Below are positions 13,591 through 58,779 of a stretch of 64,000 nucleotides of DNA, piece by piece. Each line of letters starts with the position of its first letter. The stretch's first letter is position 1. Location of the stretch: the NCBI GenBank assembly GCA_963664405.1, contig OY761158.1, positions 1,920,001 through 1,984,000 on the forward strand, written 5' to 3'. The stretch is from Thermoanaerobaculia bacterium. Lineage in GTDB: Bacteria > Acidobacteriota > Thermoanaerobaculia > Multivoradales > Multivoraceae. The notes beneath the pieces are model-generated. The model did no database searches, had not been told where the DNA came from, and saw nothing but the letters and a program-made list of their open reading frames with translations. Made by a program: the position numbers and the translations under genes.

Positions 13591-14208
13591 GTGACTCGCT
13601 CATCGAGTACAGAGATCAGTGGGGTGCTCGCGGCCATCCGCGCCGGCAACGAGGGTGCGGTGGATCGTCTGGTGCCCCTCGTCTACGACGAGCTGCGCAA
13701 GCTCGCCGGAACCTTCCTGGCCAACGAGCGTCCGGGACACACCCTCCAGCCCACGGCCCTCGTGCATGAGGCCTATCTGCGCCTCCTCGGCGACGGCCGG
13801 CCTCCGTGGAACGACAAAGCCCACTTCTTCCGAGCCGCGGGGCAGGCGATGCGCCGCATTCTCATCGAGCGAGCGAGAGCGCGGGCGCGCCACAAGCGCG
13901 GTGGCGACTGGCAGAGAGTTTCGCTCGACACAGCCATCGAAGGCGATCTTCCGCGGCCGGAGTCGCTCCTCGACCTCGATCGTGCTCTTTCGCGTCTGGC
14001 GAAAATCGACTCTTCCATGGCAGAAGTGGTCGAGTTGCGCTACTTCGCGGGACTGACAGTTGAGCAGATAGGGAACGCACTCGAGGTGTCGCCCCGCTCG
14101 GTACAGCGGCTGTGGACCGCAGCGCGTGCCTGGCTGCACGCCGAGCTCACACCCTCGGTGCGGCGCGACTCCGATGGCGCATCTCTCGCCGTTTCGTCGC
14201 TTGAGTAG
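13591..14208 (+). CDS. ECF sigma factor (TIGR02999/ECF43-like, kinase-associated), copy 1
   Basis: LVPLVYDELRKLA, HTLQPTALVHEAYLRL, AMRRILIERAR, VVELRYFAGLT, W..ARAWL. Confidence 0.93.
   Translation: MTRSSSTEISGVLAAIRAGNEGAVDRLVPLVYDELRKLAGTFLANERPGHTLQPTALVHEAYLRLLGDGRPPWNDKAHFFRAAGQAMRRILIERARARARHKRGGDWQRVSLDTAIEGDLPRPESLLDLDRALSRLAKIDSSMAEVVELRYFAGLTVEQIGNALEVSPRSVQRLWTAARAWLHAELTPSVRRDSDGASLAVSSLE
14175..14205 (+). promoter_or_regulatory. Putative ECF promoter TGGCG-N18-CGCTTGAG upstream of kinase 1
   Basis: Matches the bipartite motif found at five other sites. Confidence 0.55.
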
Positions 14209-14270
14209 ATAAAAGGGAGAGTGGTCACGGCGTAGCTAAGCCGGTCTCACCCACTCTCGACTCGACTCGA

Positions 14271-17200
14271 ATGACCGAGCCCATCGTCGACTGGCCACGG
14301 GTCTGGGAGCTCTTTCACCAGACTCTGGACCTGCCGCCGCAAGAGCGGCGATCTCTTGTCGAAGCGACTCGCGCCAGCGACCCGGGTCTGGCCACCGAGA
14401 TCGAGCGCCTGCTCGATAGCCACGAGACGAGTGGACTGCTCGATCAGCCTCTGCTGGTAGACGACGAGAGCGCGCCGGAGCCCGAAGCGGGTCTCGACCC
14501 AGGCCTGGTCCTCGCCGGCCGCTTCGAGGTCGTACGCGAGATCGCCAGGGGCGGCATCGGACGAGTCTACGAGGCCCGCGACCGCGAGCTCGACGCCCGC
14601 GTCGCGGTCAAGGTGCTGCGACCCTCGATCGCCGGCGACGCGAAATCGCGAGAACGCTTCCGCCGCGAAGTCCAGCTCGCCCGTCAGGTCACCCACCGAA
14701 ACGCCTGCCGGCTCTTCGACCTGGTGCATGACAAAGAGATCACTTTCCTGACCATGGAGTACCTCGATGGCGAGACGCTGGCGGATCGGCTACGCCAGCA
14801 CGGTCCGCTATCGACCCAAGAAGCGCTCTCGATCGCCAAGCAAGTAGCTGCAGCGCTCGATGCGGCTCATGCGGTCGGGGTCGTCCATCGTGACCTCAAA
14901 ACCGGCAACGTGATGTTGGTCGACGAAGCGGACGCAACACGGGCCGTGGTCACCGACTTCGGACTAGCAAAAGTATCTGGCGACCAGCTCGCACCGGCGC
15001 AGGCCGGCGGCGACCCCCACGGGCGCCTAACCGAGGCTGGGCAGGTGGTCGGCACTCCCGCCACCATGGCTCCAGAGCAGCTGGCAGGGGGCGAGATCAC
15101 ACCCGCCACCGACCTCTGGGCGTTCGGCATGCTGCTGCACGAGATTCGCACTGGGAGCCTGCCGGTGCGAACGACACCTGGTCCAGACGGAGGAGAGGGT
15201 ACGCCGCTGCCGTTGCAGGCTGAGCTGGATCGCCCCTGGCGAAATGCGATCGCGGCTTGCTTGGCGGCCGATCCCATCGATCGACCGCAGAGCGCCGGGC
15301 AAGTGCTCGCCATCCTTTCGGGCGAGGAGTTCGCATCGGGGAGAGCTCGCCCCGGCAAACGCTTCAGAGGTTTCCTTGCCACAGCGGCGGCGGCGGTTCT
15401 CCTGGCGACCCTCGGCGTCATGATCCAGAACAAAGTGCTGGCGCCGGGTCGCACGACCGACACGGCCCAGCAGGCTCTGTCTCTCGAACAGCCCGCCTTC
15501 GTCCTCATCGCCGACTTCGACAACAACACCGGCGAGGAGCTCTACGACGGGGCGATTGAAGCGGCACTGCGAGGCGAGCTCGACAGCTCGGGCTATGTGA
15601 ACGTCGCGACACCCTCTCTCGTTGCCGGAGCTCTGCGCCTGATGCGCCGCCCGCTCACAACGCCGATAGATCGCCGGGCAGCGCGGGAGATCTGCCTGCG
15701 CGACGGGGGCATCAAGGCATTTCTCATCGGTGACATTTCCCGGCAGGGCTCGGCCTTCGTCCTCAACGTCGACGTAGTCGAGCCGAACGAGGATGTCTCG
15801 ATCGCAAGTTTCACCGAAGAAGCCACCGAGGCAGAGCTCGAGACGGCGTTGGCCAGGCTATCCAGTCGTGTGAGCGAGGGCATAGGCGAGGAACTCGCCC
15901 AGATCCAGCTCAGCGACGCGAAACTGAGCCGAGTCACGACACCGTCGCTTCGCGCCCTCGGGCTCTACTCCGATGGAGACGCTGCCATGCGACGCGGGGC
16001 ACTCAACGCTGCTCAGCCCCTTCTTCGTGCCGCGATCGACGAGGACCCCGAGTTTGCATCGGCCTACAACCACCTCGCCTGGGCGCTCTTCAATGTGAAT
16101 GTGGGCGCTCACGCGGCTCTTACCACCCAGCTGACGCCCGAGACCCGCGGAGCCTGGGCCGAGACGATGGCCGAAGTGCAAACCTACTCCGATCGAGCTA
16201 TTGCGCTCGCACCTCTAGCAACCGAAGTCGAGCGCTACTTCATCCGCGGTAGCGATCTAAGTCGTCGAATTTCGGGCCTGGGCGCTGGAAGAAACGAGCT
16301 ATACAAAGAAGCAATAGGGCAATACGAAGCGACCCTCGAGCTGGAGCCCGACCACTTCTGGTCGGCCAGAAATCTAGGTGCTCTGGTCGGGGCTCCGATG
16401 ACCCAGGGCGGCTTTTCAGCCTGGACCTGGGGACCACAGGCATGGCGGCATGCGAGCCTCTACCCGAACGACCTAATTGCCAACATATCGGCCGCCAGCA
16501 GTTACGTGCAATTCGGATATCGTTCTCAAGCGCGTAAGCATGTGGCGCGGAGCCTCGAGCTCAGGCGAGAATCGCAATCCGGTCCAATCTTGGTGTGGGC
16601 CCGCTTCTTCTCGGTGCACGAAGCGTGGATGGCAGGTGACCTCGAACAGGTTCGCGCCGAATTGGAGCGCCTCGAGGGCGGTCGAGTGCCACCCGGCAGC
16701 GGGGACATGAAGCGCGACTATTTTGCTAACTGGTACCGAGCTCTGGGAGTGCAATGGAACGACTCGCGTTGGACCTCCGAGCTACTCCCGACCTCTCTCC
16801 GTTGGAGCCGAGGTACGGCTGCCTACTACAGGGGTGACCTGGACGATCTTCAGCTCGCCTTCGACGCCAGCTTCCTGGACTACTCTGGTATGAGTCTCGT
16901 CCTCGAGCCGGTAAGGATCTGCTACCTGGCACAGATCGGGCTGGTATGGGAGGCTCGACAGGCGCTGACGGAGCTTCAAGCGATCGAACACCTGTCCGGG
17001 GATCTGCCACACGGCTTCCCTATGCCGCCGCTCGGGCCCGTGCTCGAGGTCGTGGAGGGGCGGGTGCTGGCTGCTGAGGGAAAGGGAGGGCGGGCAATCT
17101 CGCTACTCGAGAATGCTCTCCCGCGTTTGCTCCAAAACAGCGGCACTTTGCGGGGCTATGGCGGTGCAGTTCCGAGTTACTTCGAGGGGGCGATGGGGCT

Positions 17201-17483
17201 CGCCGAGTCGTTGCGAGCCGAGGGGAGACTCGTAGAGGCTGTTCGCGCCCTGGAGAATGCCAGCGACCTCAGATTCCAGACCTATCCCCTCAGCGCCCCC
17301 GCTTGGATGTTTACCCAGACCGCGCTGGTCCGCGCCTACCGTCAGATGGGGTGGAAGGCGGAGGCCGCGACAGCCGAAGCCCAGCTTCGCGACCTCCTCC
17401 GCCTTGCGGAGCCGGACTTCGTCCTACTGCGCGAATTGGACGATCGCGAAGCCGAGAGCCTCCTCATCCCCAGCTTCGACTAA
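14271..17483 (+). CDS. Membrane Ser/Thr (Hanks) kinase with TolB_N-like and TPR extracytoplasmic region, copy 1
   Basis: ARGGIGRVY, VAVK, HRDLKTGN, DFGLA, GTPATMAPE, one TM helix, then IADFDNNTG and TPR-like repeats. Confidence 0.93.
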   Translation: MTEPIVDWPRVWELFHQTLDLPPQERRSLVEATRASDPGLATEIERLLDSHETSGLLDQPLLVDDESAPEPEAGLDPGLVLAGRFEVVREIARGGIGRVYEARDRELDARVAVKVLRPSIAGDAKSRERFRREVQLARQVTHRNACRLFDLVHDKEITFLTMEYLDGETLADRLRQHGPLSTQEALSIAKQVAAALDAAHAVGVVHRDLKTGNVMLVDEADATRAVVTDFGLAKVSGDQLAPAQAGGDPHGRLTEAGQVVGTPATMAPEQLAGGEITPATDLWAFGMLLHEIRTGSLPVRTTPGPDGGEGTPLPLQAELDRPWRNAIAACLAADPIDRPQSAGQVLAILSGEEFASGRARPGKRFRGFLATAAAAVLLATLGVMIQNKVLAPGRTTDTAQQALSLEQPAFVLIADFDNNTGEELYDGAIEAALRGELDSSGYVNVATPSLVAGALRLMRRPLTTPIDRRAAREICLRDGGIKAFLIGDISRQGSAFVLNVDVVEPNEDVSIASFTEEATEAELETALARLSSRVSEGIGEELAQIQLSDAKLSRVTTPSLRALGLYSDGDAAMRRGALNAAQPLLRAAIDEDPEFASAYNHLAWALFNVNVGAHAALTTQLTPETRGAWAETMAEVQTYSDRAIALAPLATEVERYFIRGSDLSRRISGLGAGRNELYKEAIGQYEATLELEPDHFWSARNLGALVGAPMTQGGFSAWTWGPQAWRHASLYPNDLIANISAASSYVQFGYRSQARKHVARSLELRRESQSGPILVWARFFSVHEAWMAGDLEQVRAELERLEGGRVPPGSGDMKRDYFANWYRALGVQWNDSRWTSELLPTSLRWSRGTAAYYRGDLDDLQLAFDASFLDYSGMSLVLEPVRICYLAQIGLVWEARQALTELQAIEHLSGDLPHGFPMPPLGPVLEVVEGRVLAAEGKGGRAISLLENALPRLLQNSGTLRGYGGAVPSYFEGAMGLAESLRAEGRLVEAVRALENASDLRFQTYPLSAPAWMFTQTALVRAYRQMGWKAEAATAEAQLRDLLRLAEPDFVLLRELDDREAESLLIPSFD

Positions 17484-17494
17484 GGGATGGCGGC

Positions 17495-18349
17495 TTAGGG
17501 CGTGCAAACGCCGTCGTTGTCACAGAGCACCCGCTTCACCCTGAGCTGAACGGGCATGTTGTACTCGCCCAGTTCCACCCCTTGCTTGCGAACGCTGACG
17601 ATACAGGCGTCAAAACAAGTCAGCGTCAGATCGTCGTCGCCGATTTCGGTGTCGGTGACAATCAAAGGCGAGAAGAAGGTCAGTGTCGTGACGATCTGCT
17701 GCCACTCGATCGCGGACTTCTTGCCTTTCTGATTCAGCGACGGGATCATGACCTCGAGCGTGGCCGGCCCGGCTGAGACCCCTTGCGGCAAGTCAAAGAT
17801 GCCTGTGCCGACGCGCAAGAGCGCTTCCACGTTGTCGACGCACGGATCCGGATTGGGCATGGGGACATAACCCACGACCTCGTCAGGGACCGATCCGTAG
17901 AACTCTGTGTCCAAATAGAGGCACGGACCACCTTCCAGGGGTCTGCTGAAGTCGAGCGTGAAGTGGCGGTTGTCTCCTGGTGGCAACCCATCGTTGAGGT
18001 TGGTAGAGCCGTCGTGGGTCTCAAACCAAAGCCCGTCCGGCCCGGTCAGACCGACAAAGACGTTTCCTCCCGGAGTACATTCGGGATCCCCTCCGTCAAG
18101 GGTCGTCCAGTAGTCGAAGAGGCCGTCACAAAGGGAGAGGGCCAGACCATCGCCTCTGATACCGGCTGAGGATCCATCGACCATGTCGCTGAAGACAGCG
18201 CGCTGAAATGCGGTCGACGAATTCCCCCCGCCGCCACGACCCTTTCCGCCTTTGGCGGCCGAAGCCGGCGTGACCGGCGCGAGTATCAGAACGGCCAGTC
18301 CCATTCCGCTGACAACCGCAAAGAGTCTGTTCTTTGCACATCGAGACAT
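17495..18349 (-). CDS. Secreted Cys-containing hypothetical protein, convergent on kinase 1
   Basis: GGAGG RBS, signal peptide ending ASA-A, Gly/Lys linker; blocks shared with 56001-56954. Confidence 0.75.
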   Translation of the reverse strand: MSRCAKNRLFAVVSGMGLAVLILAPVTPASAAKGGKGRGGGGNSSTAFQRAVFSDMVDGSSAGIRGDGLALSLCDGLFDYWTTLDGGDPECTPGGNVFVGLTGPDGLWFETHDGSTNLNDGLPPGDNRHFTLDFSRPLEGGPCLYLDTEFYGSVPDEVVGYVPMPNPDPCVDNVEALLRVGTGIFDLPQGVSAGPATLEVMIPSLNQKGKKSAIEWQQIVTTLTFFSPLIVTDTEIGDDDLTLTCFDACIVSVRKQGVELGEYNMPVQLRVKRVLCDNDGVCTP

Positions 18350-18402
18350 TAGGAACCTCCCTGTCGTCAGGAGGCCGGCGCACAGTCGTCGGTCTCCTTA
18401 TA

Positions 18403-18433
18403 CTAAGGCGACGTTTCTTCTGCTACCGTGCCA
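18403..18433 (-). promoter_or_regulatory. Putative ECF promoter TGGCA-N18-CGCCTTAG
   Basis: About 55-60 bp upstream of the 18349 start; shared motif. Confidence 0.6.
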
Positions 18434-18476
18434 GCTCGATCACACGGCCCGCATGCCGGCCTGCGATCGAAGCGCG

Positions 18477-18574: not shown

Positions 18575-18678
18575 AGGCATCCCCGCCGGCAAATACTCGG
18601 CTGGCACCTTTTGGTGGATGCACCTTTAGTGGATCTCGGCTTGGATACATAAGGCACACGTTGTGCTAGAATCGGAAC

Positions 18679-28633: not shown

Positions 28634-29203
28634 ATGGCGACCCCATCTCATCAGATCACTCAGATCCTCGACGCAATGGGTTCCGGCGACTCGGATGCCG
28701 CGGACAGGCTCCTTCCCCTCGTCTACGACGAGCTGCGCGGCATCGCCAGGGCCTTCATGGCGAAGGAGAAGCCCGGCCAGACTCTCCAGCCGACCGCTCT
28801 GGTTCACGAAGCCTACATCCGTCTCTTGGGTAAGGACGCTCCACGCTGGGACAACCGGGCCCACTTCTTCACCGCCGCCGCCGAGGCGATGCGCCGCATC
28901 CTGATCGAGAACGCGCGCCACAAGACGGCCCTCAAAAGGGGCGGCGACCAGCTGCGCATCACCCTCGGTGATGTCGCCGACGGAGAGTCCGCCCGCTTCG
29001 AGGAGTTGCTGGCCCTCGACGAGGCGCTCCAGCGGCTCGAGGAGAGAGACGCGGCGATGGCTCAGGTGGTCAAGCTGCGCTACTTCGCCGGGCTGACCGT
29101 CGAGGAGACGGCGAAAGCACTCGACACTTCCCCGCGTTCGGTCAACCGCCATTGGACGGCGGCGCGGGCCTGGCTGCGGAGAGAGTTGTCGAGCGCGAGC
29201 TAA
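28634..29203 (+). CDS. ECF sigma factor (TIGR02999/ECF43-like), copy 2
   Basis: LLPLVYDELR, QTLQPTALVHEAYIRL, VVKLRYFAGLT, HWTAARAWL. Confidence 0.93.
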   Translation: MATPSHQITQILDAMGSGDSDAADRLLPLVYDELRGIARAFMAKEKPGQTLQPTALVHEAYIRLLGKDAPRWDNRAHFFTAAAEAMRRILIENARHKTALKRGGDQLRITLGDVADGESARFEELLALDEALQRLEERDAAMAQVVKLRYFAGLTVEETAKALDTSPRSVNRHWTAARAWLRRELSSAS

Positions 29204-29225
29204 GACCTCTGCCTCCGGGCAGAGT

Positions 29226-29256
29226 TGGCGTACAACGCGGCAAATCTGCGCATGTA
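29226..29256 (+). promoter_or_regulatory. Putative ECF promoter TGGCG-N18-CGCATG upstream of kinase 2
   Basis: Lies in the sigma-kinase intergenic gap; shared motif. Confidence 0.6.
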
Positions 29257-29298
29257 AGTGTGGAGCGGCCTCAGCAGAGACCCGCTGCTAGACTCGTC

Positions 29299-32200
29299 AT
29301 GTCTTCCATGCCCCCATCGTCTTCACCAGACAGGCGCTGGCACCGCCAGTGGGACCTCTTTCACGAGGCCCTCGAGCTCGACCCCTCCGAGCGCAAAGCC
29401 TTTCTGGCGCAAGCTGGTGGCGACGACCTCGAACTCGTCGCAGAAGTCGTCGCTCTCCTCGAAGCCCACGAGGATGGACCCACGGTTCTCGACCGACCGC
29501 CGCCAGACGCAGTCGCAGCGACGGTGGAAGACGGCGGTGCGACACGGACGACGCAAACTCTTGCGCAGCAGGGGCTTACACCCGGCCAGGTTTTGGCGAA
29601 CCGCTTCGAGATAGGCCGGCTGCTCGGCCGAGGCGGGATGGGAGCGGTCTACGAGGCAACAGACCGAGAGCTCGGTACTCGGGTGGCACTCAAGATCCTG
29701 CGGCCCGAGATCGCTTCGAGCGAGAGGGCTCATGCTCGTTTTCGGCGCGAGATCACGCTCGCCCGCCGAGTCACCCACCCTAACGCCTGCCGGGTCTTCG
29801 ACCTCTTCCAAGCGGATGGGCTCGCCTTCCTCACCATGGAACTGCTCGACGGCGAGACCCTCCACGCGAGGCTTGCCCGGGACGGACGCCTCGACCTCGA
29901 AGAGGCCCGCCTCATCACCGAACAGATCGTGGCGGCACTCGAGGCCGTCCACCGCGAAGGGGTCATCCATCGCGATCTCAAAACTTCGAACGTGATGCTG
30001 GTCGCCGACGGCGAAAGCACTCGAGCCGTCGTCACCGACTTCGGCCTGGCAACCAGCCGTCATCACGACGACAGCGAAGAGACCCAGCTCACGCGGTCGG
30101 GCGAGCTTCTGGGTACGCCCGCCTACATGTCTCCTGAACAGTTGGAAAACGGAGCGATCACCGAGGCCACCGATGTCTACGCGCTCGGGCTGACTCTGTA
30201 CGAGATGGTGACCGGCAAGGCACCGTTCATCGGTGACACTCCCTTCTCGGTGGCGGCACTGCGTCTCGCCGGTACTGCGCCGTCGCCGCGGAGGGAGGTG
30301 CCGGGCCTCGACCGCACCTGGGAACGAACCATCCTCCGCTGTCTCGAGAAAGAACCTGTCGATCGCTTTCAAACCCCGCGCGAAGTGCTCGAAGCTTTGG
30401 AAGGCGACCGACCCCCTGTTGTTTTCTCGAAGAGACGCCACCGGATGCGGCAGCTGGTGTGGGCCTTGCCCGCCGCGATTCTCACCTCGCTGGCGGTGAC
30501 CGGGCTCTGGCTGGCGCTGGTCGCGGATCCTAGAGGCCAGGCCCTGGTCGCTGAGACCCTCTCGTTCGAGGAGCGCGACGCCGTTCTGATTGGAGAGTTC
30601 GAGAACCAGAGCGGCGACCCTGACTTCGACGGCACGCTCGAGGCTGCCTTGACACGCGAGCTCGCCAACTCCACCTTCGTCACCGTCGCTTCGCGCCTGC
30701 GCATCGAGGACACGTTGCTGCTCATGAAGCTACCGGTGGACACGCCGCTGACCGACGAGACTGCCCGCGAGCTTGCCGTTCGCGACGGCGGCGTGCGGGG
30801 CATCTTGTCCGGGACCGTGGACCGGGTGGGTAGCTCCACCATTCTCAGCGCCGATCTGATCGCACCGAGAGATGGAGCCGTAGTGGCAAGTCTGAGCGAG
30901 GAGATTGCCGACGGCGAAGAGCCGATCCACGCCTTGCGCCGCCTCTCCCGAGGCGTGCGTCAGCTGCTCGGCGAAGAGTTGGTCTCCATCGAGAAAAGCG
31001 AGCTCGAGCTGGCGAAGGTATCGACACCTTCGCTGCGTGCACTGAAGCTTTACAGCCAGGCGGACGCGATGCACATCGGCCGTGGGCAATTGGCAGTCAA
31101 GGAGCAGCTCCTACGCGACACGATCGTCGAGGATCCGGACTTCGCTTCGGCCTATCTCGAGCTAGCCCACGTCACCACGCTGAGTGCGATGCGCGGCAAC
31201 GAGACCGGCGGCTGGGCTGAAACCCACGGCCTTGCCAAGCGGGCTATGGAGCTCTCGGACAACACCCCGGATCGCGAGCGCTATTACATTCGCGGCCGTT
31301 TCTACCACCTCTTCTTCGAGGAAGACGGTTGGCCGATGGACCCCAAGCGTCTCGACCGGGCACGGGCGAACTACGAAGCTCTGCTGCGTCTCTACCCCGA
31401 CCACTACGATGCCAATCTCGCCATGGCCGGCATTACTTCGGACGGGGGCGAGAATCGCCTCGCGGGCATCCCCTACACGGTTCGCGCTGCCGCTCAACGA
31501 CCGAACGACTTCGAGAGCAACTTCGATGTGGCCCATCAGCTGGCCTCCTGGGCCAACCGTTTCGACGAAGCCCAGCCCTTCGTCGAGCGCGCCATCCAAA
31601 TAACCGCGGAGGAAGTGCACGAGTGGAAGGGGTATGAAGCCACCTGGGCTCGCTTCTTCGCTGCCCATCGCGCATGGATGAGTGGTGACGTCGGCGGCAT
31701 GCGAGAGGATCTCGAGCGCGCGGCCGAGCGGCTGCAAGAGGCCCCGCCCCACGTCGCCGGTTGGACGCGATCCGCGCTGCAAGACGGATATCGCGGACTC
31801 GGGCTCCGCAGCGAATTGTCGCGGCTCGAGATGGGCGGCGGCTCCTGGCTGGGAGTTGACGCTTACTTCGACGGCGACGACGAGGCCGTACTCAGGCATC
31901 TCGGCGGCGCAGCGCACGAGGACCGCGGCTGGTCGAGCTTCATCCTGCATGACCCGGTCCGTGTCGCCTACCTGGCTCGGTCCGGGTTTACCGACGAGGC
32001 GCGCTCTGTGATGGCCGTCTTCGCGGCGCAGGAAGAGACACCGAAACCCTTCTTCTTGAACGCCGGTAGGTCGCCGAAGCTCATCGCCAAAGAGACGTTG
32101 CTTCCCCTGATGAGAGCAGAGCTGGCGCTTGCCGAAGGGCGCCCCGAGGAAGCCGCCGCGCTCTTCGAAGGCCAGCTACTGCAGGACTGGTACGACGTGC

Positions 32201-32481
32201 AATGGGGCTACTTCGTCAGTCTCCAAGGTCTTGCCATGGCCTACGAGAAGCTCGGGCAGCGCGAAGCCGCCGTCAACATCCTCGAACGGTCGGCTACCGA
32301 GAAGCACCGGGCTCACCCCTTCGGCAAGGAAGTGTGGATGGCCAATCAGGTCGAGCTCGCCAGGCTCTACCGGGAACAGGGCTGGCTCGACGAGGCCGGT
32401 CAGATCGCCGAAGAGCTGGCCGTTCTGATGGCGGCAGCAGACGCCGATTTCTGGCTGGTCCGAAAGCTCGCCAAGCTATAG
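29299..32481 (+). CDS. Membrane Ser/Thr kinase with TPR region, copy 2
   Basis: GRGGMGAVY, VALK, HRDLKTSN, DFGLA, GTPAYMSPE; same architecture as copy 1. Confidence 0.93.
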   Translation: MSSMPPSSSPDRRWHRQWDLFHEALELDPSERKAFLAQAGGDDLELVAEVVALLEAHEDGPTVLDRPPPDAVAATVEDGGATRTTQTLAQQGLTPGQVLANRFEIGRLLGRGGMGAVYEATDRELGTRVALKILRPEIASSERAHARFRREITLARRVTHPNACRVFDLFQADGLAFLTMELLDGETLHARLARDGRLDLEEARLITEQIVAALEAVHREGVIHRDLKTSNVMLVADGESTRAVVTDFGLATSRHHDDSEETQLTRSGELLGTPAYMSPEQLENGAITEATDVYALGLTLYEMVTGKAPFIGDTPFSVAALRLAGTAPSPRREVPGLDRTWERTILRCLEKEPVDRFQTPREVLEALEGDRPPVVFSKRRHRMRQLVWALPAAILTSLAVTGLWLALVADPRGQALVAETLSFEERDAVLIGEFENQSGDPDFDGTLEAALTRELANSTFVTVASRLRIEDTLLLMKLPVDTPLTDETARELAVRDGGVRGILSGTVDRVGSSTILSADLIAPRDGAVVASLSEEIADGEEPIHALRRLSRGVRQLLGEELVSIEKSELELAKVSTPSLRALKLYSQADAMHIGRGQLAVKEQLLRDTIVEDPDFASAYLELAHVTTLSAMRGNETGGWAETHGLAKRAMELSDNTPDRERYYIRGRFYHLFFEEDGWPMDPKRLDRARANYEALLRLYPDHYDANLAMAGITSDGGENRLAGIPYTVRAAAQRPNDFESNFDVAHQLASWANRFDEAQPFVERAIQITAEEVHEWKGYEATWARFFAAHRAWMSGDVGGMREDLERAAERLQEAPPHVAGWTRSALQDGYRGLGLRSELSRLEMGGGSWLGVDAYFDGDDEAVLRHLGGAAHEDRGWSSFILHDPVRVAYLARSGFTDEARSVMAVFAAQEETPKPFFLNAGRSPKLIAKETLLPLMRAELALAEGRPEEAAALFEGQLLQDWYDVQWGYFVSLQGLAMAYEKLGQREAAVNILERSATEKHRAHPFGKEVWMANQVELARLYREQGWLDEAGQIAEELAVLMAAADADFWLVRKLAKL

Positions 32482-35600: not shown

Positions 35601-35824
35601 ACGTAGCTGCCCGGAGGCAAGAGGCCGAAGCGGAAGAGACCGGTCTCATCTGCTCGCCGCTCATGAGCGCCTCTGTCGCCCTCCAGCACCACCAGTGCAC
35701 CCGCAATCGGGGCTCCCTCCCTCGTCGTAATCCTCCCCGACAGATTTCCTGTCTCAGGTCCATCGGCACGCAGTCCCACGGCCAGAAGACCCAGAAAAAG
35801 TCCCCATGCGAGCCATCCCTTCAT
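32660..35824 (-). CDS. TonB-dependent receptor (Oar-like, N-terminal carboxypeptidase-regulatory-like domain)
   Basis: Signal peptide, GLLPPGSYVV, ETVIVTAE, KSGSNRFHG, LGGPIVRDRAWFF, C-terminal GVRF. Confidence 0.9.
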   Translation of the reverse strand: MKGWLAWGLFLGLLAVGLRADGPETGNLSGRITTREGAPIAGALVVLEGDRGAHERRADETGLFRFGLLPPGSYVVRASMEPFTTAAGRISIAAGGTAELDLELEVTASETVIVTAESPMIDRFNIVAGASIDAETAGQVSAVNRSFLGAIDLLPGVTQDDESLYLGYIRPSVNGALWQEQSVYIDGVDATYSMRGGGTRVFFPTVAVEEISMQVGGSGSEYGRNVGSHTNLIVKSGSNRFHGEATGVFARDKWNSNYDSQPALAEDERLVESFEQMNEDQPEDEKTDPEQEAADFLVFGEGERDGGSDSLEGYLGGPIVRDRAWFFFSRADVTTDQLDKILDGSLLDVSTETKTTLAKVNLQPAARHSLALTWIDSPSDRLFVQTSTYDRYAATFFGFSGDIASLSWNSTLRTNLFLEAKAATQTSNEDRSRPFPPELKAQDPAFAPDPALGEFSPVNNDDAYIQRCDSTTHNGWRLGLGYGTNEFPRDQVNFAATQFLARHELRYGLDLQQVDWDQDVQRPNLISGFEFDAMTEFGFEDGCERNCTLNDYNPADVVAAGKGSATSRGRNYGAYLRDRFEVGDHWVFNLGLRWEDQRLTNDRGRTVIDSGDLSPRLSVVYDFGGNGRRLMSLSVGRLFTQTPQNLVNANLQEDWTGASNAVDLYLNINALGFVRRFPDDVACERIAGFGFPTNLDNGSYCFFLGSIRPGGLWEIHDDPNLNVDIDIEPYHRDEIVLGYEWQLGKRWIFDAKGIWWRLDNLIGSTIQRNEEFGLFQLVENYDDYAPILRELGWVENFVANGIGTRERAEEILDSFEDDNRSYRALQLQLNKRFSKGWALYNNLTFGRAEGKTSGGSANNLNDDYGRNLEFLLTEDLVDDFDCERLDLDDSCRELLRPHVGEPVSTIHRDGVMPTSRDLIFKSYGYKLFDVGGGHELSIGGNFFYQTGAPWNHDLTVFRPPTNRSDTVYSVEALRTFLEPRGSLENGDRWSINLSGSWAFPLGRPGLEGWLRVEAYNVINRQEQISTNSRTGAPRRSRRSFQRPRTMRVLAGVRF

Positions 35825-35985
35825 AACGCCGCTCCTTGTCGCCAAAAGGCGACCACCGGTTAGTCGGCTGCCCACAAAAGCCAGGACAGACCCTCGATTC
35901 GAGGCAGAACCTGCGGGTATTGCCCACATCCTACTAGGGAGGCTCCCACGATCCCATTTGAGGCACTCTTGATGCCCCTTCACTC

Positions 35986-36017
35986 CTACATGCGAAAAAT
36001 CCCGTCCTAGCGCGCCA
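35986..36017 (-). promoter_or_regulatory. Putative ECF promoter TGGCG-N18-CGCATGTAG
   Basis: About 165 bp upstream of the receptor start; shared motif. Confidence 0.6.
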
Positions 36018-36126
36018 AAAGGCGCAGAAGCTCGAGGACCGACGAGACTAGTGCGGGCGGCCGAATCCCCATCGACATGCCAAATGTCATAGATTCAGCT
36101 CTCCACCTGGCAGCAAAGGAGGGGTC

Positions 36127-52197: not shown

Positions 52198-52251
52198 GAT
52201 TAATCTTACGCTGCCGTAGAGATTAACCATGCTATCGCCGTCTGCCATCTA

Positions 52252-52836
52252 GTGAGAGATTCCAGCCCCCAGCAGGTCACCCTAATTCTGGAAGCGATCA
52301 ACGCGGGGGACGCAGCCGCAGAGGATCAACTGCTGCCCCTGGTTTACGACGAGCTGCGCAAGATCGCACGATCGCGGATGGCGCGGGAGCGGCCAGGGCA
52401 GACTCTTCAGCCCACCGCCCTGGTGCACGAGGCCTATCTTCGCCTCTTCGGAGGCGAGAAGCCCAGCTGGGAGAGTCGAGCTCACTTCTTCGGCGCCGCC
52501 GGCGAAGCCATGCGTCGCATTCTGATCGAACGAGCACGCAAAAAGGGTCGACTGATGCGAGGCGGCGACCGGCGCCGCGTCGAGCTCGACACTTCGGCGG
52601 GAAGAACCGAGCCGCCTTCGGATGAGGTTCTGGCACTCGACGAATCGCTCAGCGAGCTCGAGTCGATCGACTCCAAGATGGCACAGGTCGTGAAGCTACG
52701 CTACTTCGCCGGTCTTACCGTGGAGGAAACAGCGAGCGCCATGGCCAGCTCGCCGCGAACGGTCCACCGGCAGTCGGTCGCCGCTCGAGCGTGGTTACAG
52801 AGTAAGCTGTACCCCAGCGATCAACAAGGTCAGTAG
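52252..52836 (+). CDS. ECF sigma factor (TIGR02999/ECF43-like), copy 3
   Basis: LLPLVYDELRKIA, QTLQPTALVHEAYLRL, VVKLRYFAGLT. Confidence 0.93.
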   Translation: MRDSSPQQVTLILEAINAGDAAAEDQLLPLVYDELRKIARSRMARERPGQTLQPTALVHEAYLRLFGGEKPSWESRAHFFGAAGEAMRRILIERARKKGRLMRGGDRRRVELDTSAGRTEPPSDEVLALDESLSELESIDSKMAQVVKLRYFAGLTVEETASAMASSPRTVHRQSVAARAWLQSKLYPSDQQGQ

Positions 52837-52843
52837 CAGCGCC

Positions 52844-55800
52844 ATGACAGAGAGATCCGATCCCCCGGGTCACTGGGGGCTAGTATGGGATCTGTTTCAC
52901 CGTGCCCTGGAAACCGGGTCCGAGGAGCGGGCCGCCTTCCTGACAGAAGCCTGTGGAGGGGACAAAGAGCTGCGATCGGAAGTCGAGAAGCTGTTGGCAG
53001 CTCATGAGCACGAGTCGCAGCTGCTTGACCTCCTGACCGAGCTCGCTCCGGAGGGGGACACCTCCAGGCCCACGGAGCTACCCGAGGTTCCCCCGGAGCA
53101 AGAGCTCGCGCCCGGCGCTGTTCTGGCGGATCGTTTCGAGATTGTCGGCCTCGTCGGCAGAGGCGGAATGGGAGCCGTCTACGAAGCTCAAGATCGTGAG
53201 CTGGGTGCGCGAGTGGCCCTAAAAACCCTGCTGGCAGCACTCTCTGGAAGCAGCGCCGCTCTGGACCGATTCCGGCGAGAGATCCAACTCGCCAAGCAGG
53301 TCACCCACCCCAATGTATGCCGGATCTACGATCTCTTTCGCGACCGTGAGGGCCTCTTCTTCCTGAGCATGGAGCTCCTGGAGGGGAAGACCCTGGCGCA
53401 GCACATCGCGGAGTCCGGCCCGCTCGATCTCGACGAAGCCCTGCCAATCGTCGAGCAGCTGGCAGCCGGGCTCGCTGCCGCCCACCAGGCCGGGGTCGTG
53501 CACCGCGATCTCAAGAGCTCGAACATCATGCTGATTCCCGAAGGCGGCGGCACACGGGCGGTGGTAACCGACTTCGGCCTGGCGCGGACAACAGGCTCAG
53601 CAGACGCCGAGACCGGACACCTCACCCGAAGCGGGGAAGTTCTCGGCACCCCGGCCTTCATGGCTCCCGAGCAACTGGAGGGAGGCGAGATCTCGCCGGC
53701 AACCGACGTCTACGCTTTCGGCGTCGTGCTCTTCGAGATGGTTACCGGGCGTCTGCCCTTCAGTGGCGTAACGCCCTATGCGGTGGTGGCGCAGCGCCTT
53801 CGGAACGAGCCACCGTCTCCCCGGGAGCACTCGCCCAATCTGGATCGGCGCTGGGAACGGGTGATCCTCCGCTGCCTGGAGTCTCGCCCCGCAGACCGAT
53901 TTCAGACTCCGGGCGCAATCGTTGCCGCGCTGCTTGGGGCCAAGGCCACCACTATCCCCTCCGATCGACGGCGCTTGGCCCGCCGCTCGGCTGTCGCAGC
54001 GATGGGTATGGCCGTTGTCTTCGGCGGGTTCTTCCTACTCCGTGGAGACGCAGACTCCGACGCTGCCGCCTCGGCCGAGGCCGACCAGGACTCCAGCGCG
54101 GCCCTTCCTTTCGCTGAGCGCGACGCGGTGCTGATCACCGCCTTCGAGAACAGGACCGGCGACGAGATCTTCGACGGCACTCTGGAAGGTGCACTGGCCC
54201 GACAGCTCGCCAACTCGACATTCGTCACCGTGGCGACCCTGCCGCGGATCCGCGACACCCTGGCCCTGATGGGCCTACCCGACAACGCCGAGGTCGATAC
54301 CTCTACCGGACGCGAGATCGCTCTGCGCGATGGCGGCATCCGCGCCTTGATCGGCGGCCGGATCGAGAAGCTCGGGCAAACATGGGTGCTGAGCGCCGAC
54401 TTGATCGACGCAAGCGATGGTCGGGTGGTGGCGAGTCTCGAGGAAGAGGCGCCGCACATGGAGGAGGTTCTCGGTGCAATTCGTCGTCTCGCCAGCGGAA
54501 TGAGAGAGCTCCTCGGCGAAGAGATCGACGAGATTCGCGAAAGCGAAGAAGAGCTGGCAAGGGTCGCCACGCCGTCTCTCAGGGCCCTACGCCTCTATAC
54601 CGAGGCCGACGCGCTCGTCGCCCGCATCGACAACGCCGCCTCAGAAGAGCTTCTTCGCCAGGCCATTGAGCTGGATCCGGACTTTGCATCGGCTCACATT
54701 TTGCTCGCCTATGCCATTGGCAACCAGGGTCGCCCCCAAGAAGAGCTCTTTCCGCATGCGGAGCGGGCCTTCGAGCTCGCCGGGCAAGCACCGGAGCGGG
54801 AGCGCTACTTCATCCGTGCCAGTTATTTCCAAATGTCAGGAGAATGGGAGAAGGCGCGAGCCAACTACGAGGCCCTCTTACGCGTCGACCCCTATCACTT
54901 CTGGGGCAACAGCAACATGGCGCGCTCCTTGTCTCGAGGCCCCCGCCGCGAAGATGCGCCCGCTTACTGGGTTCGCCGGGCGCGTGGGCGACCGAACGAC
55001 CTCGACGCCAACTTCGATGCCGGCTACGCGTTGGAGATGATCGCCGAGAGCCCCGAAGCGGCCCGGCCTTACCTTCGCCGCGTCGTTGACCTCGCCGTCG
55101 ACCCCAATAGCCCGTTGCAGCAGCGCAACGGGTTCGAGATCTCCTGGGCTCGCCTACATCCGGCCCACGAGCACTGGGTTGGCAACGACGCCGAGGGAAT
55201 GCTACGAGAGCTGGATCGCGTGGCGGAGGAGCTGTCGCAGCTATCGCCTGGCCTCGAGGCGGCATTTCTGTCAGCCGTGCTGCGCTCGGGGTATCGCAGC
55301 CTCGGCTTCCGCAACCGTCCCCCGGCGCTTAGACCCATCAGCCGCACCGGGAGCTTCTGGGGCGGAATCGACGCTTATTACCGGGGCGATCTAGCGGAGG
55401 TCAAGAGACAACTCGGCGAAGCTCGAAGCCGCCTCGTCTGGGCCGGCGCCCTCATCCAGGAACCGCCCCGTATCCTCGCCCTGGTGCGTGCCGGCTTCTT
55501 AGCGGAGGCCCGGGCAGGCCTCGCCTCTTTCGAGCTCCGCGAAGAGACTTCGGTCCCCGACGGCTACCCGGCGCGCAACACCGTGACCGATGTCATGAAG
55601 GGCCATGTAGCCCTCGCCGAGGGCCGGGTGCAGGAGGCCCTAGCACTGCTGCAGAGTGCGCTCACCGCGGGGCCAGAACCGGGCGGGACCAGCTACTTTG
55701 TGGCGGCGTCGGGCCTCGCCTCGGCGTGGCTGGAGCTCGGCGAGCCCGCTCGCGCCTTGGCAGCCCTCGAAGAGTCGTCGCGGCAGAAGCGGCGCAGCCA

Positions 55801-55981
55801 TCCCTACGCCAGGGAGACCTGGATGGCCAACCAGCTCCGCCTCGCCTCTCTCTATCGCGAGCTGGGAAGAGCGAGCGACGCGCAGGGCGTCGAAGACGAG
55901 CTGCGCGCGATGCTGGCCTATGCCGATCCCGACTTCTGGCTCGTTCAGCAGCTGGCGGCGAACAGCCAACCCGCCCCCTGA
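52844..55981 (+). CDS. Membrane Ser/Thr kinase with TPR region, copy 3
   Basis: GRGGMGAVY, HRDLKSSN, DFGLA, GTPAFMAPE; same architecture as copies 1 and 2. Confidence 0.93.
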   Translation: MTERSDPPGHWGLVWDLFHRALETGSEERAAFLTEACGGDKELRSEVEKLLAAHEHESQLLDLLTELAPEGDTSRPTELPEVPPEQELAPGAVLADRFEIVGLVGRGGMGAVYEAQDRELGARVALKTLLAALSGSSAALDRFRREIQLAKQVTHPNVCRIYDLFRDREGLFFLSMELLEGKTLAQHIAESGPLDLDEALPIVEQLAAGLAAAHQAGVVHRDLKSSNIMLIPEGGGTRAVVTDFGLARTTGSADAETGHLTRSGEVLGTPAFMAPEQLEGGEISPATDVYAFGVVLFEMVTGRLPFSGVTPYAVVAQRLRNEPPSPREHSPNLDRRWERVILRCLESRPADRFQTPGAIVAALLGAKATTIPSDRRRLARRSAVAAMGMAVVFGGFFLLRGDADSDAAASAEADQDSSAALPFAERDAVLITAFENRTGDEIFDGTLEGALARQLANSTFVTVATLPRIRDTLALMGLPDNAEVDTSTGREIALRDGGIRALIGGRIEKLGQTWVLSADLIDASDGRVVASLEEEAPHMEEVLGAIRRLASGMRELLGEEIDEIRESEEELARVATPSLRALRLYTEADALVARIDNAASEELLRQAIELDPDFASAHILLAYAIGNQGRPQEELFPHAERAFELAGQAPERERYFIRASYFQMSGEWEKARANYEALLRVDPYHFWGNSNMARSLSRGPRREDAPAYWVRRARGRPNDLDANFDAGYALEMIAESPEAARPYLRRVVDLAVDPNSPLQQRNGFEISWARLHPAHEHWVGNDAEGMLRELDRVAEELSQLSPGLEAAFLSAVLRSGYRSLGFRNRPPALRPISRTGSFWGGIDAYYRGDLAEVKRQLGEARSRLVWAGALIQEPPRILALVRAGFLAEARAGLASFELREETSVPDGYPARNTVTDVMKGHVALAEGRVQEALALLQSALTAGPEPGGTSYFVAASGLASAWLELGEPARALAALEESSRQKRRSHPYARETWMANQLRLASLYRELGRASDAQGVEDELRAMLAYADPDFWLVQQLAANSQPAP

Positions 55982-56000
55982 TCTCAAAGACGGACACGGT

Positions 56001-56954
56001 CTAGGCGTCGGGGGTGCCGTCACAATCGTTGTCGAGCCCGTCGCGGCCCCATCTGCCTTTGGAGTCCTGATGGCCCGGATAGATCCGGGAGTTGCCGTCG
56101 TCGCAGTCGTCTCCTCCCGTTGCAATCGAGCAGTGACCGTCGGCATCCGCGTCGGTGCAACCGGCACCTCCGCCGCCGCCATCGCCCCCATCGACCGTGC
56201 TCACTCTCTGTAGCCGGATCGCCATCGGTAGGTACCATCTGCCTATGACCGCGTTATCCGACGCCCGCACCACCTCGGCCTCCGAGACGTCGACTTTTCC
56301 GTCGCACGACTCGGTCTGCAACAGCCGCCAATTGTCGTCATCCGCGTGGAGAGGGTCCTGGCAGATGTAGAGAGGGTTCACATGATCGATGTCGGCCTTG
56401 GGAGTAAAGCCGCCGACCTCGTTCCACAGCTTGAAGCGGCGCAGTGTCTGACGAGTGGCGCCGGCCTTGAAGACGCGATCGGCACTGATATCGACCTGAG
56501 CAAAGCAGTCGGTCGCACAGTTGCAAGTGTCGCCCCCCAGCTCGCCTCCCAAGCTCAGCGCCGCCAGGGCTGAGCAGCCGGCCCCGCCATCGGCGGAGTC
56601 GGAGAAGTCGAATCCAATCGCCCGCATGAACGACTTCGAGAAATATCTGGTAGCGAGCTTCCAACGCCCGCCCCCCGAGACCGTGCTGAAACCGGTGGTC
56701 GAGAGAGTTGGCGTGCAGACGTCGCGGGCGTCGGCGTAGTCGAAGTCGGTGCCTTCGCAGGTGAGAGGGTCGTCGGCACTTACGCTCAGATTGGCATCGG
56801 CGCCGAAGACACCGCCACTGAGCGCGTTTGCCGCTTCGTGCAGAAAATCCACCCTCACCAGCACTGACTCCTGCTGAGCAGCCATCGGTAGGGCGCTCCA
56901 GCCCACGAGCAAACCCAAGTGGATGGCGAGCAAGATCGTTTTTCGCAACGTCAT
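56001..56954 (-). CDS. Secreted Cys-rich hypothetical protein with C-terminal acidic metal-binding (MopE-related-like) repeat, convergent on kinase 3
   Basis: AGGAGG RBS, signal peptide, DADADGH..DCDD..IYPG..DGLDNDCDG. Confidence 0.8.
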   Translation of the reverse strand: MTLRKTILLAIHLGLLVGWSALPMAAQQESVLVRVDFLHEAANALSGGVFGADANLSVSADDPLTCEGTDFDYADARDVCTPTLSTTGFSTVSGGGRWKLATRYFSKSFMRAIGFDFSDSADGGAGCSALAALSLGGELGGDTCNCATDCFAQVDISADRVFKAGATRQTLRRFKLWNEVGGFTPKADIDHVNPLYICQDPLHADDDNWRLLQTESCDGKVDVSEAEVVRASDNAVIGRWYLPMAIRLQRVSTVDGGDGGGGGAGCTDADADGHCSIATGGDDCDDGNSRIYPGHQDSKGRWGRDGLDNDCDGTPDA

Positions 56955-57015
56955 GGAGACCTCCTTGGAAAACTAGACTTCCCTGTGAGTGGGTGAAGTC
57001 TGGTGTGCATGTCTC

Positions 57016-57046
57016 CTAGTGCGCCATCCGATCAAGAATCCTGCCA
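57016..57046 (-). promoter_or_regulatory. Putative ECF promoter TGGCA-N18-CGCACTAG
   Basis: About 65 bp upstream of the 56954 start; closely resembles the 58750 site. Confidence 0.65.
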
Positions 57047-57181
57047 CCGGAACGGCGTATTGACGTGCCGCAGTCAAATCTGGAGAGGATGACAGTCATC
57101 ATCGATGACCTGCGAGGGCTGGGACTTGACCGGCCCTCGGCCTTCGCACGACACTTTTTTCATAGCCCGAGAGGACCCGAG

Positions 57182-58688
57182 CTACTTCTGTTCAAGACAA
57201 GTCGCCCATGCATTCATGATGACGGGCGTGGCGGTGCCGTTGCCGTATCCGAGTTTCGTCGCCTGTATCTGCCAGCCACTACCTAGGGGAGATGAGCCCC
57301 AGATAACGATCGGTGTGAAGAGAGGGAGTGGCGCGGCTATCTGCCCACCGCCTCCGAGGACGGCCGTCCCGCCGGGGCACGCTACTTCGCAATAACCAAA
57401 ACCGAATGGAGCGATGCTCACCCGGCACTCTCTCCTTACACGGCTGATCGTCCCCAGACCGCTGGGGCCCGTCGCCCCTTCAGGGCCCGGCGGGCCTTGA
57501 AGACCGGAGACGCCCTGCAGGCCCTGGGGGCCCTGGGGACCTGATGGCCCGGCTTGCCCCGGTGGACCCTGCAGCCCGCGCGCGGGCCCTCGGGTCCCGA
57601 GGGTCCCACGGGCCCGGAAGGTCCCTGAAGACCGGGTGAGCCTTGAGGCCCGGAGGCTCCCGGAGGGCCGGTGGGTCCCTGCAATCCCTGCGGTCCACGC
57701 GGGGCACTGAACTCCACCCACCGGCCCGATTGGTAAGGCGGCGTCGTCAGAGGATCGACGCCGCCTCCCCGGTAAATCCACATGCTGGCCACGTCGGGGT
57801 CCGTAGTGGAGCGGTCGAATACGTAATCGTTCGGCGCATAGGGCGGGATCGGGCTTGGCTCCCATTCGCCACGATTGTCGAGCCCCGAGCCCGCTGGACC
57901 CTCCGGTCCCGACAGTCCTTGGGGTCCCGGCGGCCCAACCGCACCCAGAGTGCCCTGCAGGCCGGAGTCCCCTGCGGTCCGGGCGGGCCTTGCAGACCAC
58001 GCGTACCTTGCAGGCCGGACGTCCCCTCCGGCCCGGACGGCCCGGGCAGACCCGGCTGACCTTGTAGGCCCTGGGTCCCCTGCGGTCCAGAGGATCCGAT
58101 CGGACCGGGGGGTCCCAGCGGACCTTGCGGGCCCGGCGGTCCTCCAGCCGGGCCCTCCGGCCCCTCGGGCCCCGGCGGCCCTTGCGCACCCTCGGGTCCA
58201 GGTGGTCCCTCCAGCCCCTCTGGGCCGACAGGTCTGACCGCGCCGAGCGTGAGATCGTACTCGTCGTACCCCCTGTGCGAGGCGCTGGTCTCCACCGAGA
58301 ACAGAAAGTCGCCGGTCGGGCAGATCCCGCCGGGGCATGCAGCCACGATCTCGTAGGCCGACGCGAAGCAGACATTCAACGGACCTTGATCGCCCAGGAC
58401 CACCAAGGGCGGGTCGCCGTTGTCGAAGCCGATGCCTGCGATCAGCAAGACCTGGTCGCCAGCCATGCACGGACCGAGCGGCGAAGCCAGGCCGAGGAGG
58501 TCGGTGTGGACCTCGCTGATGAAGAGATCAACCGTGGCGGGGTTGTTGCCGCTGTTCTGGCCGGAGACGGCAGTCGGTGCAGTCAGGCCCAGCCCGACAA
58601 GCAGAGCTGCGCAGGGGATCGATACGCGAACCCTCGCCAAAATCCCTCCTGCTCGGAGAACTGCCAAAACCGCTTTCTGCGACCTCAT
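57182..58688 (-). pseudogene. Exported collagen-like (Gly-X-Y) protein with two apparent frameshifts (near 57965 and 57585)
   Basis: Signal peptide and GPQG/GPPG runs that continue across three frames; C-terminal CPGGTAVLGGG..AWATC domain. Confidence 0.8.
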
Positions 58689-58749
58689 GGTGACCTCCTC
58701 GGATAGGGCAGACCTCCGAAAATATGAGGAGGGCTGGCGCGCATGTCTT

Positions 58750-58779
58750 CTAATGCGCCGTCCGATGAAAAACCTGCCA
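58750..58779 (-). promoter_or_regulatory. Putative ECF promoter TGGCA-N17-CGCATTAG
   Basis: About 65 bp upstream of the collagen-like gene start. Confidence 0.65.

Follow-up and report, generated by a model that had tools for sequence, protein, structure and literature searches.

A conserved candidate promoter of kinase-linked ECF sigma factors stands before kinase genes and module neighbors, not before the sigma genes, in a Thermoanaerobaculia genome

The stretch of DNA analyzed here, hereafter the window, comprises 64,000 nucleotides (nt) of a Thermoanaerobaculia bacterium (assembly GCA_963664405.1, contig OY761158.1, positions 1,920,001 to 1,984,000 of the forward strand). It has a G+C content of ~63% and contains three tandem gene pairs, all on the + strand, in which a gene for an extracytoplasmic function (ECF) sigma factor is followed by a gene for a Ser/Thr protein kinase; we refer to each pair as a module (Table 1). 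Our subject is a conserved box of ~44 nt, six copies of which lie before two of these kinase genes and before four other genes of the window, and which is a candidate promoter for sigma factors of this kind. The three sigma factors score 204-216 bits against PF07638 (cut-off 21.1) and 205-221 bits against TIGR02999 (cut-off 126), and their pairwise identity is 58-61%. The stretch TLQPTALVHEAY is identical in all three and occupies the place of the acidic DAED core-binding patch of region 2.2. To judge by these sequence features, they match the family description of kinase-activated ECF sigma factors (ECF43-like, TIGR02999/PF07638). Their closest relatives in the genome collection come from Thermoanaerobaculia and other Acidobacteriota assemblies, with identities of at most 67%. 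A domain scan of the window proteins found no anti-sigma domain among the neighbors of the modules. The distance from the stop codon of the sigma gene to the start of the Pkinase open reading frame (ORF) is 62 nt in module 1, 95 nt in module 2 and 7-8 nt in module 3. Around modules 1 and 2, terminator-like hairpins are at or below the level of shuffled sequences, and the hairpin that directly follows the sigma-2 stop codon has no T-run.

Table 1. Modules, candidate promoter boxes and genes behind them in the window (bits, score against the 44-nt matrix; residual, score on the matrix columns outside TGGCR and CGC)
Feature	Position	Strand	Description
Sigma 1	13591..14208	+	ECF sigma factor, PF07638 / TIGR02999; LQPTALV in region 2.2
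Kinase 1	14271..17483	+	Ser/Thr protein kinase with TPR repeats; ATG 14271
Sigma 2	28634..29203	+	ECF sigma factor, PF07638 / TIGR02999
Kinase 2	29299..32481	+	Ser/Thr protein kinase with TPR repeats; ATG 29299
Sigma 3	52252..52836	+	ECF sigma factor, PF07638 / TIGR02999
Kinase 3	52844..55981	+	Ser/Thr kinase with TPR repeats; own box absent
Box 1	14172..14215	+	before kinase 1; TGGCG 14175-14179, CGCTTGAG from 14198; 12.1 bits, residual +0.8
Box 2	18393..18436	-	before ORF 17495-18349(-); TGGCA 18433-18429, CGCCTTAG from 18410
Box 3	29223..29266	+	before kinase 2; TGGCG 29226, CGCATGTA from 29249; 11.1 bits
Box 4	35977..36020	-	before TonB-receptor-like gene; TGGCG 36017, CGCATGTA from 35994; 13.6 bits, residual +5.5
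Box 5	57006..57049	-	before ORF 56001-56954(-); TGGCA 57046, CGCACTAG from 57023; 14.0 bits
Box 6	58740..58782	-	before collagen-repeat ORF 57747-58688(-); TGGCA 58779, CGCATTAG from 58757; 17.4 bits
Doubtful seventh box	52239..52282	-	divergent from sigma 3, facing amidohydrolase gene; 13.1 bits
Putative target 1	17495..18349	-	284 aa, no known family, signal-peptide-like N-terminus; convergent with kinase 1
Putative target 2	32660..35824	-	outer-membrane TonB-dependent-receptor-like protein, CarboxypepD_reg domain; convergent with kinase 2
Putative target 3a	56001..56954	-	317 aa, secreted-looking, weak MopE-type metal-binding motif; convergent with kinase 3
Putative target 3b	57747..58688	-	collagen-triple-helix-repeat protein; gene after target 3a

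The original prediction had listed six sites of the form TGGCR-N17-18-CGC (R being A or G) in the window, and each of them was found in the sequence at the coordinates and on the strand claimed. It had also placed all six on the coding strand at 50-170 bp before a start codon; the strand and the position before a start codon are as described, and the distance measured from TGGCR is 73-193 nt (kinase 1, 96 nt; target 1, 84 nt; kinase 2, 73 nt; the TonB-receptor-like gene, 193 nt; targets 3a and 3b, 92 and 91 nt). For the TonB-receptor-like gene the true start is the ATG at 35824, a GTG at 35983 having been rejected. The site at 14175 covers the final 34 nt of the sigma-1 ORF. The four boxes that do not precede a kinase gene are located at the convergent gene directly downstream of kinases 1, 2 and 3 and, in the case of box 6, at the gene that comes next. 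By a hand calculation, the chance that four random sites among the 35 other genes cover all three module neighbors is P ~6e-4.

The short pattern turned out to be the skeleton of a longer element, which was recovered from other genomes with the window excluded. Around relatives of the sigma factors, 80 loci were collected (cited below by L numbers where needed), which hold 62 sigma-then-kinase pairs, 33 of them with a spacer of 55 nt or more. On these 33 spacers a Gibbs sampler converged on nnnnCGCAYTG, and the refined 44-nt matrix matched 26 of the 33 at 15-37 bits; the box was thus found de novo in spacers of Planctomycetota, Verrucomicrobiota and Acidobacteriota. Counted from the C of CGC as position 0, the element consists of a -35 part TGR, a T-rich tract, a spacer of ~12 nt, a -10 part A-N-K-K-CGCAYTG and a TRRA patch, so that the TG of TGGCR falls on -23/-22 and CGC on 0 to +2. 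Outside the anchor, the conserved columns are T at -23 (25/29), G at -22 (22/29), T at -15 (20/29), A at -4 (22/29) and A at +15 (20/30), along with R at -21, G at -19, K at -1 and T-R-R-A at +12 to +15. In an alignment of 47 sites, the columns T4, G28 and C29 are invariant, with at least 90% conservation at G5 and C27. From the first T of the -35 part it is 23 nt to the C of the -10 part (22 nt in one window site), and the spacing of the blocks varies by at most 1 nt across the matches. Every match faces a downstream ORF where one lies within the contig, and conservation fades ~15-25 nt past CGC.

With regard to the window itself, the short pattern as written has 29 matches, compared with a mean of 23.3 in shuffled sequences (standard deviation 5.3, n = 100), and 17 of the 100 shuffles reach 29. 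The expectation that it be commoner than in shuffled DNA was therefore not borne out, and enrichment of the loose motif was dropped as evidence. The caution that accompanied the original prediction, namely that the motif is short and GC-rich, was well placed: the short form is not enriched, and CGC is merely the core of the longer box. About 7 of the 29 loose matches are intergenic, intergenic DNA making up 16% of the window, and this excess is not significant. A more informative measure is a residual score, for which the 44-nt matrix derived from the other genomes is applied only to the columns outside TGGCR and CGC. The six sites have residual scores from -0.9 to +9.0 and occupy ranks 1, 2, 4, 5, 6 and 7 among the 29 loose matches, while 22 of the remaining 23 score from -11.7 to -34. 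The other one, at 40314-40339 (-) with +2.1, lies antisense inside an MFS transporter gene and was taken as a chance match. Merely 1.6% of the intergenic positions of the window have a residual score of at least -0.9, and the mean residual scores of intergenic and coding DNA are alike (-17.0 vs -17.5), which makes it unlikely that the external motif is an artefact of composition. The chance of the ranking observed is ~1e-9 according to a hand calculation in which the near-identical boxes 5 and 6 were counted once. Box 3 has the highest residual score (+9.0, rank 1 of 29) and box 2 is the poorest match to the external model (below 8 bits, residual -0.9, rank 7 of 29). Scored with the full matrix, five of the six boxes, at 11.1-17.4 bits, are among the 11 best matches of the window, the site at 18433 remaining below 8 bits; the top score of the window belongs to box 6, whose spacer is one base shorter than that of the other five. 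At a length of 64 kb such single-site scores are not significant, as the maximum in shuffled sequences averages 13.6 bits; matches of at least 12 bits number 10 in the window against 1.4 in shuffles, and 4 of the 10 come from an unrelated repeat. On the basis of the residual-column test and the 1.6% intergenic frequency, we regard the six sites as genuine members of the motif found in the other genomes.

A repeated unit of 128 bp in the window deserves a separate description. It is present in 3.8 tandem copies at 44959-45441 (+), reaching the annotated start of a cytochrome c peroxidase gene (45419), and in an additional copy near 2546(-), in the region ~2440-2600 (-). The unit has a palindrome GAAATGAT-N4-ATCATTTC, with longer arms that show compensatory changes between copies, followed by GGACGGCGCACTC, a sequence that is similar to the -10 part of the box and has a score of 12-14.5 bits. 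The last copy has the ATG ~12 nt past CGC.

The 80 related loci contain 65 matches of at least 15 bits, 39 of which are non-training sites, as against 5-6 in shuffled sequences, and 35 of at least 21 bits, as against 0. The box precedes the kinase gene in 27 of the 33 pairs with long spacers (at least 55 nt) and in 3 of the 29 with short ones, which amounts to 30 of the 62 pairs. The proposed link between the candidate promoter and ECF-kinase modules is thus supported by spacers from which the box was derived independently of the window. A different situation was found for the regions upstream of the sigma genes. The matrix scan of the window gave no match of at least 4 bits on the + strand upstream of any of its three sigma genes, in agreement with the earlier claim that no site is present there. 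Among the related loci, a sense match of at least 15 bits was found upstream of the sigma gene in 1 of 80, and an antisense match toward a divergent neighbor in 5 of 80; a motif sampler run on these sigma-upstream regions returned nothing coherent. In L007 and L035 the box stands before the sigma gene, and in L003 and L005 before a gene just upstream of it in the same orientation. The locus of the closest relative, L001 (67% sigma identity), has the gene order kinase then sigma, and a box upstream of that kinase was not found; L002 and several Vicinamibacterales loci gave zero matrix matches. The genes behind the box in other genomes mostly encode secreted or envelope proteins (CsgG, BNR/sortilin, PATR, PEP-CTERM/dockerin, GH16, MacB/FtsX, TAtT). 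Some strong matches are several kb away from the nearest module, such as those of L051 at 5924 and 17775.

The sigma-kinase spacers of some related loci have further contents. In L011, L017, L024, L033 and L041 a small ORF (~70-170 aa) lies between sigma and kinase, and the box precedes the small ORF; the N-terminus of its product looks hydrophobic in the three verrucomicrobial loci among them. The spacer of L012 (10560-10760) is filled by three copies of a unit of ~50 nt, and those of L032 (10546-10668) and L073 (10534-10673) consist of AAAACTG-like or GTGACAG-like repeats and have no box. The seventh match of the window (Table 1) is considered doubtful because CTCACTAG stands in place of the CGC of the 47 aligned sites. 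A box in the same position, divergent from the sigma gene, is also present in L031, L032, L036, L056 and L067. The amidohydrolase gene that it faces probably starts at the ATG near 52196 rather than at 52248.

The boxes come in different flavors. The -35 part is uniform within an organism and variable between organisms: TGGCR in all six sites here, TGATCC in four sites of L051, and TGATAG in L028 and L021. The mean identity of boxes is 0.52 within a locus and 0.38 between loci, a value that 0 of 5000 permutations reached. In the window, the -10-proximal part is identical at 16 of 22 positions for the two boxes of module 2 and at 17 of 22 for those of module 3, compared with 3-11 of 22 across modules. 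The -10 variants of this organism are CGCATGTA, CGCAYTAG and CGTCGCYTKAG. In L012, modules of one genome have boxes of differing flavors. Boxes 5 and 6 have in common a block that starts sharply at the -35 part and runs to ~+25 after CGC. Since targets 3a and 3b are non-homologous, a by-product of gene duplication was rejected as the origin of this likeness, and its restriction to the region from -35 to ~+25 fits a constrained promoter and not a duplicated gene.

As to the kind of element, the box resembles an ECF-type promoter in that two blocks at fixed spacing face a gene, and it differs from one in that no such promoter stands before the gene of the sigma factor itself. The original prediction had compared the spacing with that of ECF -35 and -10 elements, and the positions of TG (-23/-22), CGCAYTG (0 to +6) and TRRA (+12 to +15) support that comparison. 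Transcription would start ~13 nt after the C of CGC, at the TRRA patch. A start near +13 would place the blocks at about -36/-35, -13 to -7 and +1, a geometry that fits promoters of the sigma-70 family, including the ECF type.

The box is real, conserved and oriented toward genes, is tied to sigma-kinase modules, and is absent before the sigma genes. We consider it fairly probable that all six sites represent a single conserved class of promoter, that of the kinase-controlled ECF sigma factors in the TIGR02999/PF07638 (ECF43-like) family. As the position and conservation of the boxes suggest, they would be read by the adjacent phospho-activated sigma factors, whose activity may depend on phosphorylation. 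In the circuit that we propose, each sigma factor would be made in an inactive state because LQPTALV replaces the acidic core-binding patch of region 2.2; the threonine of LQPTALV would be phosphorylated by the neighboring Ser/Thr kinase; the phosphorylated sigma factor would then bind core RNA polymerase and initiate at the boxes; and this would upregulate the kinase itself in modules 1 and 2, along with the convergent gene for a secreted or outer-membrane protein. Given that the boxes would raise the kinase and the targets and that the sigma gene lies outside its own regulon, feedback would target the sensor kinase rather than the sigma factor. Feedback of this type had been suggested before, and it agrees both with the boxes before kinases 1 and 2 and with the single sense match upstream of the sigma gene among 80 loci.

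It should be noted that several results weigh against the promoter assignment proposed here. The combination of AAC in the -35 element with CGT in the -10 element, a hallmark of ECF-type promoters, is not found: the -35 part is TGR-N4-TTT(C), the -10 part is CGCAYTG, and CGTCGC occurs in a subset of sites only. The box does not match the promoter predicted for proteobacterial ECF43 either (see below). The short pattern is not enriched in the window, and no single site is significant by its matrix score. All six window boxes have the same TGGCR, and therefore a single sigma factor could read them all, or the three could do so interchangeably. A flavor specific for module 1 had to be rejected, as its boxes agree at 10 of 22 positions in an ungapped comparison, within the cross-module range. 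All 80 related loci were chosen for holding a sigma factor of this type, so that the frequency of the box applies to such loci alone. As many as 34 of them have no match of at least 15 bits, including most Acidobacteriota loci, in which the gap between sigma and kinase is ~9 nt. Finally, non-kinase matches in the 37 full-length loci are concentrated near the module only weakly (9 vs 5, 6 vs 4 and 5 vs 2 at rising thresholds), and because of this weakness their proximity was not used as support.

The main rival explanation is that the box is a real promoter read by another sigma factor, be it a shared master sigma factor, another ECF sigma factor, or the paralogues interchangeably. The adjacent sigma factor would then not be the one that reads it, and the kinase genes, together with some genes for secreted proteins, would form part of the other regulon. 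The TGGCR common to the six window boxes would agree with it, as would the constancy of the -35 flavor within an organism (L051, L028, L021), the strong matches located kb away from modules (L051 at 5924 and 17775), and the weak proximity enrichment in related loci. Nevertheless, we regard it as rather unlikely, because the box is most often found immediately upstream of the kinase gene in a pair (30/62), each non-kinase box of the window is at an immediate neighbor of a module, modules 2 and 3 each have their own -10-proximal sequence in both boxes, and the modules of a single genome, that of L012, differ in flavor. It is improbable, in our opinion, that the box serves a DNA-binding repressor or activator as its operator and is not a site for polymerase. 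Conservation over ~44 nt that includes spacer positions (T-rich at -15, A at -4) goes beyond that of most promoters and would suit such an operator; however, the box has neither dyad nor direct-repeat symmetry, is strictly strand-specific and always points toward the downstream gene, and combines two blocks at promoter spacing with a purine-rich patch at the expected start. A sigma-70-type promoter that an operator might control was not found near boxes 1-4 either, the consensus TTGACA-16..18-TATAAT having 0 matches in 12400-18700 and 28000-36300 (52000-58900, with boxes 5 and 6, was unscanned).

Two other explanations appear very improbable to us. One holds that the window sites fit a short GC-rich pattern by chance, the pattern having been sought mainly in upstream regions, as the loose count of 29 against 23.3 and single-site matrix scores inside the shuffle range would allow. 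Against this stand a model trained on other genomes alone, a residual test that sets the six sites more than 10 bits above 22 of the 23 other loose matches, the small share of intergenic positions that score as high (1.6%), and the location of the sites at kinases and module neighbors. According to the other, the conserved sequence would function at the level of RNA, being a leader or a processing element in the mRNA of the kinase, which would be in line with a box between co-oriented genes that possibly lies within a sigma-kinase transcript. Consensus folding of the 47 aligned sites, however, predicted 0 pairs and no covarying pair, Rfam families have 0 matches in the window, the box is also present before unrelated genes that have no co-oriented gene upstream, and its conservation ends ~15-25 nt past CGC.

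A broader view may also be entertained, which we put forward tentatively as a possibility. It would be that the dozens of paralogous modules per genome have one promoter architecture and are kept apart by -10-proximal differences, and that positive feedback at the level of the kinase, from a promoter between the sigma and kinase genes, is ancestral across the TIGR02999/ECF43-like family in Planctomycetota, Verrucomicrobiota and Acidobacteriota. It would then be the variable loop of sigma region 2 that discriminates between CGCATGTA, CGCAYTAG and CGTCGCYTKAG. Structures of ECF sigma factors assign a role in promoter reading to this loop, and it is the most divergent part among the three paralogues of the window. 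If true, the regulon of each module could be predicted from sequence.

Some observations concern the surroundings of the modules and their neighbors. Upstream of sigma 1, in the same orientation, the region 10891-13559 (+) encodes a Mu-type transposase (rve + Mu-transpos_C) and a 262-aa ORF of no known family, and the gap between the latter and sigma 1 is 31 nt. The annotated start codons of sigma 2 (+) and of a divergent pyridoxamine-phosphate-oxidase-like gene (-) overlap by 13 nt (28634-28646); probably one of the two starts is wrong, or else each promoter is located within the coding region of the other gene. A leader of ~157 nt, unusual in its length, is predicted for the TonB-receptor-like gene (35824-35990, -), and in it a hairpin, GTCGCC-TTTT-GGCGAC, directly precedes the AAGGAG ribosome-binding site. 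Over the collagen-repeat region, long ORFs overlap in different frames (57182-58375 and 57747-58688, -), which is due either to an artefact of reading frame in the GXY repeats or to a frameshift. Elsewhere in the window, a solute-binding-protein gene (24435-26647, -) is possibly frameshifted: its ORF 25169-26647 matches just the first half of SBP_bac_5 and overlaps a 485-aa ORF of no family. Two PIN-domain genes located close together, 26657-27046 and 27381-27851 (-), are likely toxin-antitoxin modules.

In Planctomycetota, Verrucomicrobiota and Acidobacteriota, ECF sigma factors linked to kinases belong to the most expanded groups of regulators, and to our knowledge almost nothing is known of the genes they control. 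The box would provide a concrete sequence for predicting their regulons in genomes and metagenomes, and it would point to a circuit in which the sensor kinase, rather than the transcription factor, is amplified by the signal.

In comparison with known promoters, classical autoregulated ECF promoters (sigma-W / sigma-E type) have the form GGAAC or TGAAAC-N-TTT, ~16 nt, CGT, and in the sigma-W consensus 24 nt separate the T of the -35 from the C of the -10. The present box is like them in having two blocks at a fixed spacing, a -35 of the TGA type in many genomes that is followed by a T-rich tract, a C-G-rich -10 core, a distance of 23 nt that is close to 24, and envelope-protein targets. It is unlike them in that AAC is absent from the -35 and CGCAYTG replaces CGT(C/A) in the -10, and in that autoregulation of the sigma factor would be replaced by feedback on its activating kinase. 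The 5' pentamer, TGGCA or TGGCG, also resembles the -24 element of sigma-54 promoters, TGGCAC-N5-TTGC. A sigma-54 reading was rejected: the second block is 18 nt away instead of 5, and in none of the six sites, inspected by eye, is the dinucleotide 10 nt after GG a GC.

The modules themselves are like EcfP/PknT of Vibrio parahaemolyticus and EcfK/PknS of Xanthomonas citri in that a PF07638/TIGR02999 sigma gene is directly followed by a kinase gene, and unlike them in belonging to Acidobacteriota and in numbering three within 64 kb. The make-up of ECF43-type kinase-activated sigma factors is set out in excerpts of PMC13147305, PMC8999054 and the supplement of PMC7826278. For EcfP, phosphorylation of a threonine by the neighboring kinase leads to binding of core polymerase, as cited in the passages of PMC8999054 and PMC8103513 available to us. 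A QTTA consensus with a conserved Thr at the region-2.2 patch is given in the part of PMC13147305 that we consulted, and TPR repeats on ECF43 kinases in that of the PMC7826278 supplement. The window proteins agree with this description in having an uncharged region-2.2 stretch with a Thr (LQPTALV here vs QTTA, a correspondence judged by eye without structural alignment) and in the TPR repeats of their kinases. The promoter predicted for proteobacterial ECF43 in the same supplement excerpt, however, has "GTC in -35, CAG in -10", which the box does not match, and the box stands before the kinase and not before the sigma gene.

According to the consulted part of the PMC7826278 supplement, groups ECF59, ECF61, ECF62 and ECF217 likewise have a protein kinase gene at +1 and lack an anti-sigma factor, and thus resemble the modules of the window; their promoters are reported there as not conserved, or as having just "a conserved TC in -35". 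In contrast, a conserved box is present here, downstream of the sigma gene. As the promoter search of PMC7826278, in the portion available, was directed upstream of the ECF gene and assumed autoregulation, a box of this kind was perhaps missed in the ECF classification, and its location between sigma and kinase would explain the gap in the motifs assigned to such groups. No description of the present box was found in the excerpts of the literature searched, a scope that did not include the target promoters of EcfP and EcfK. We therefore rate the box as new with respect to its unusual -10 sequence and its unusual position in the circuit, as a candidate ECF-type promoter within a known family of ECF-kinase systems.

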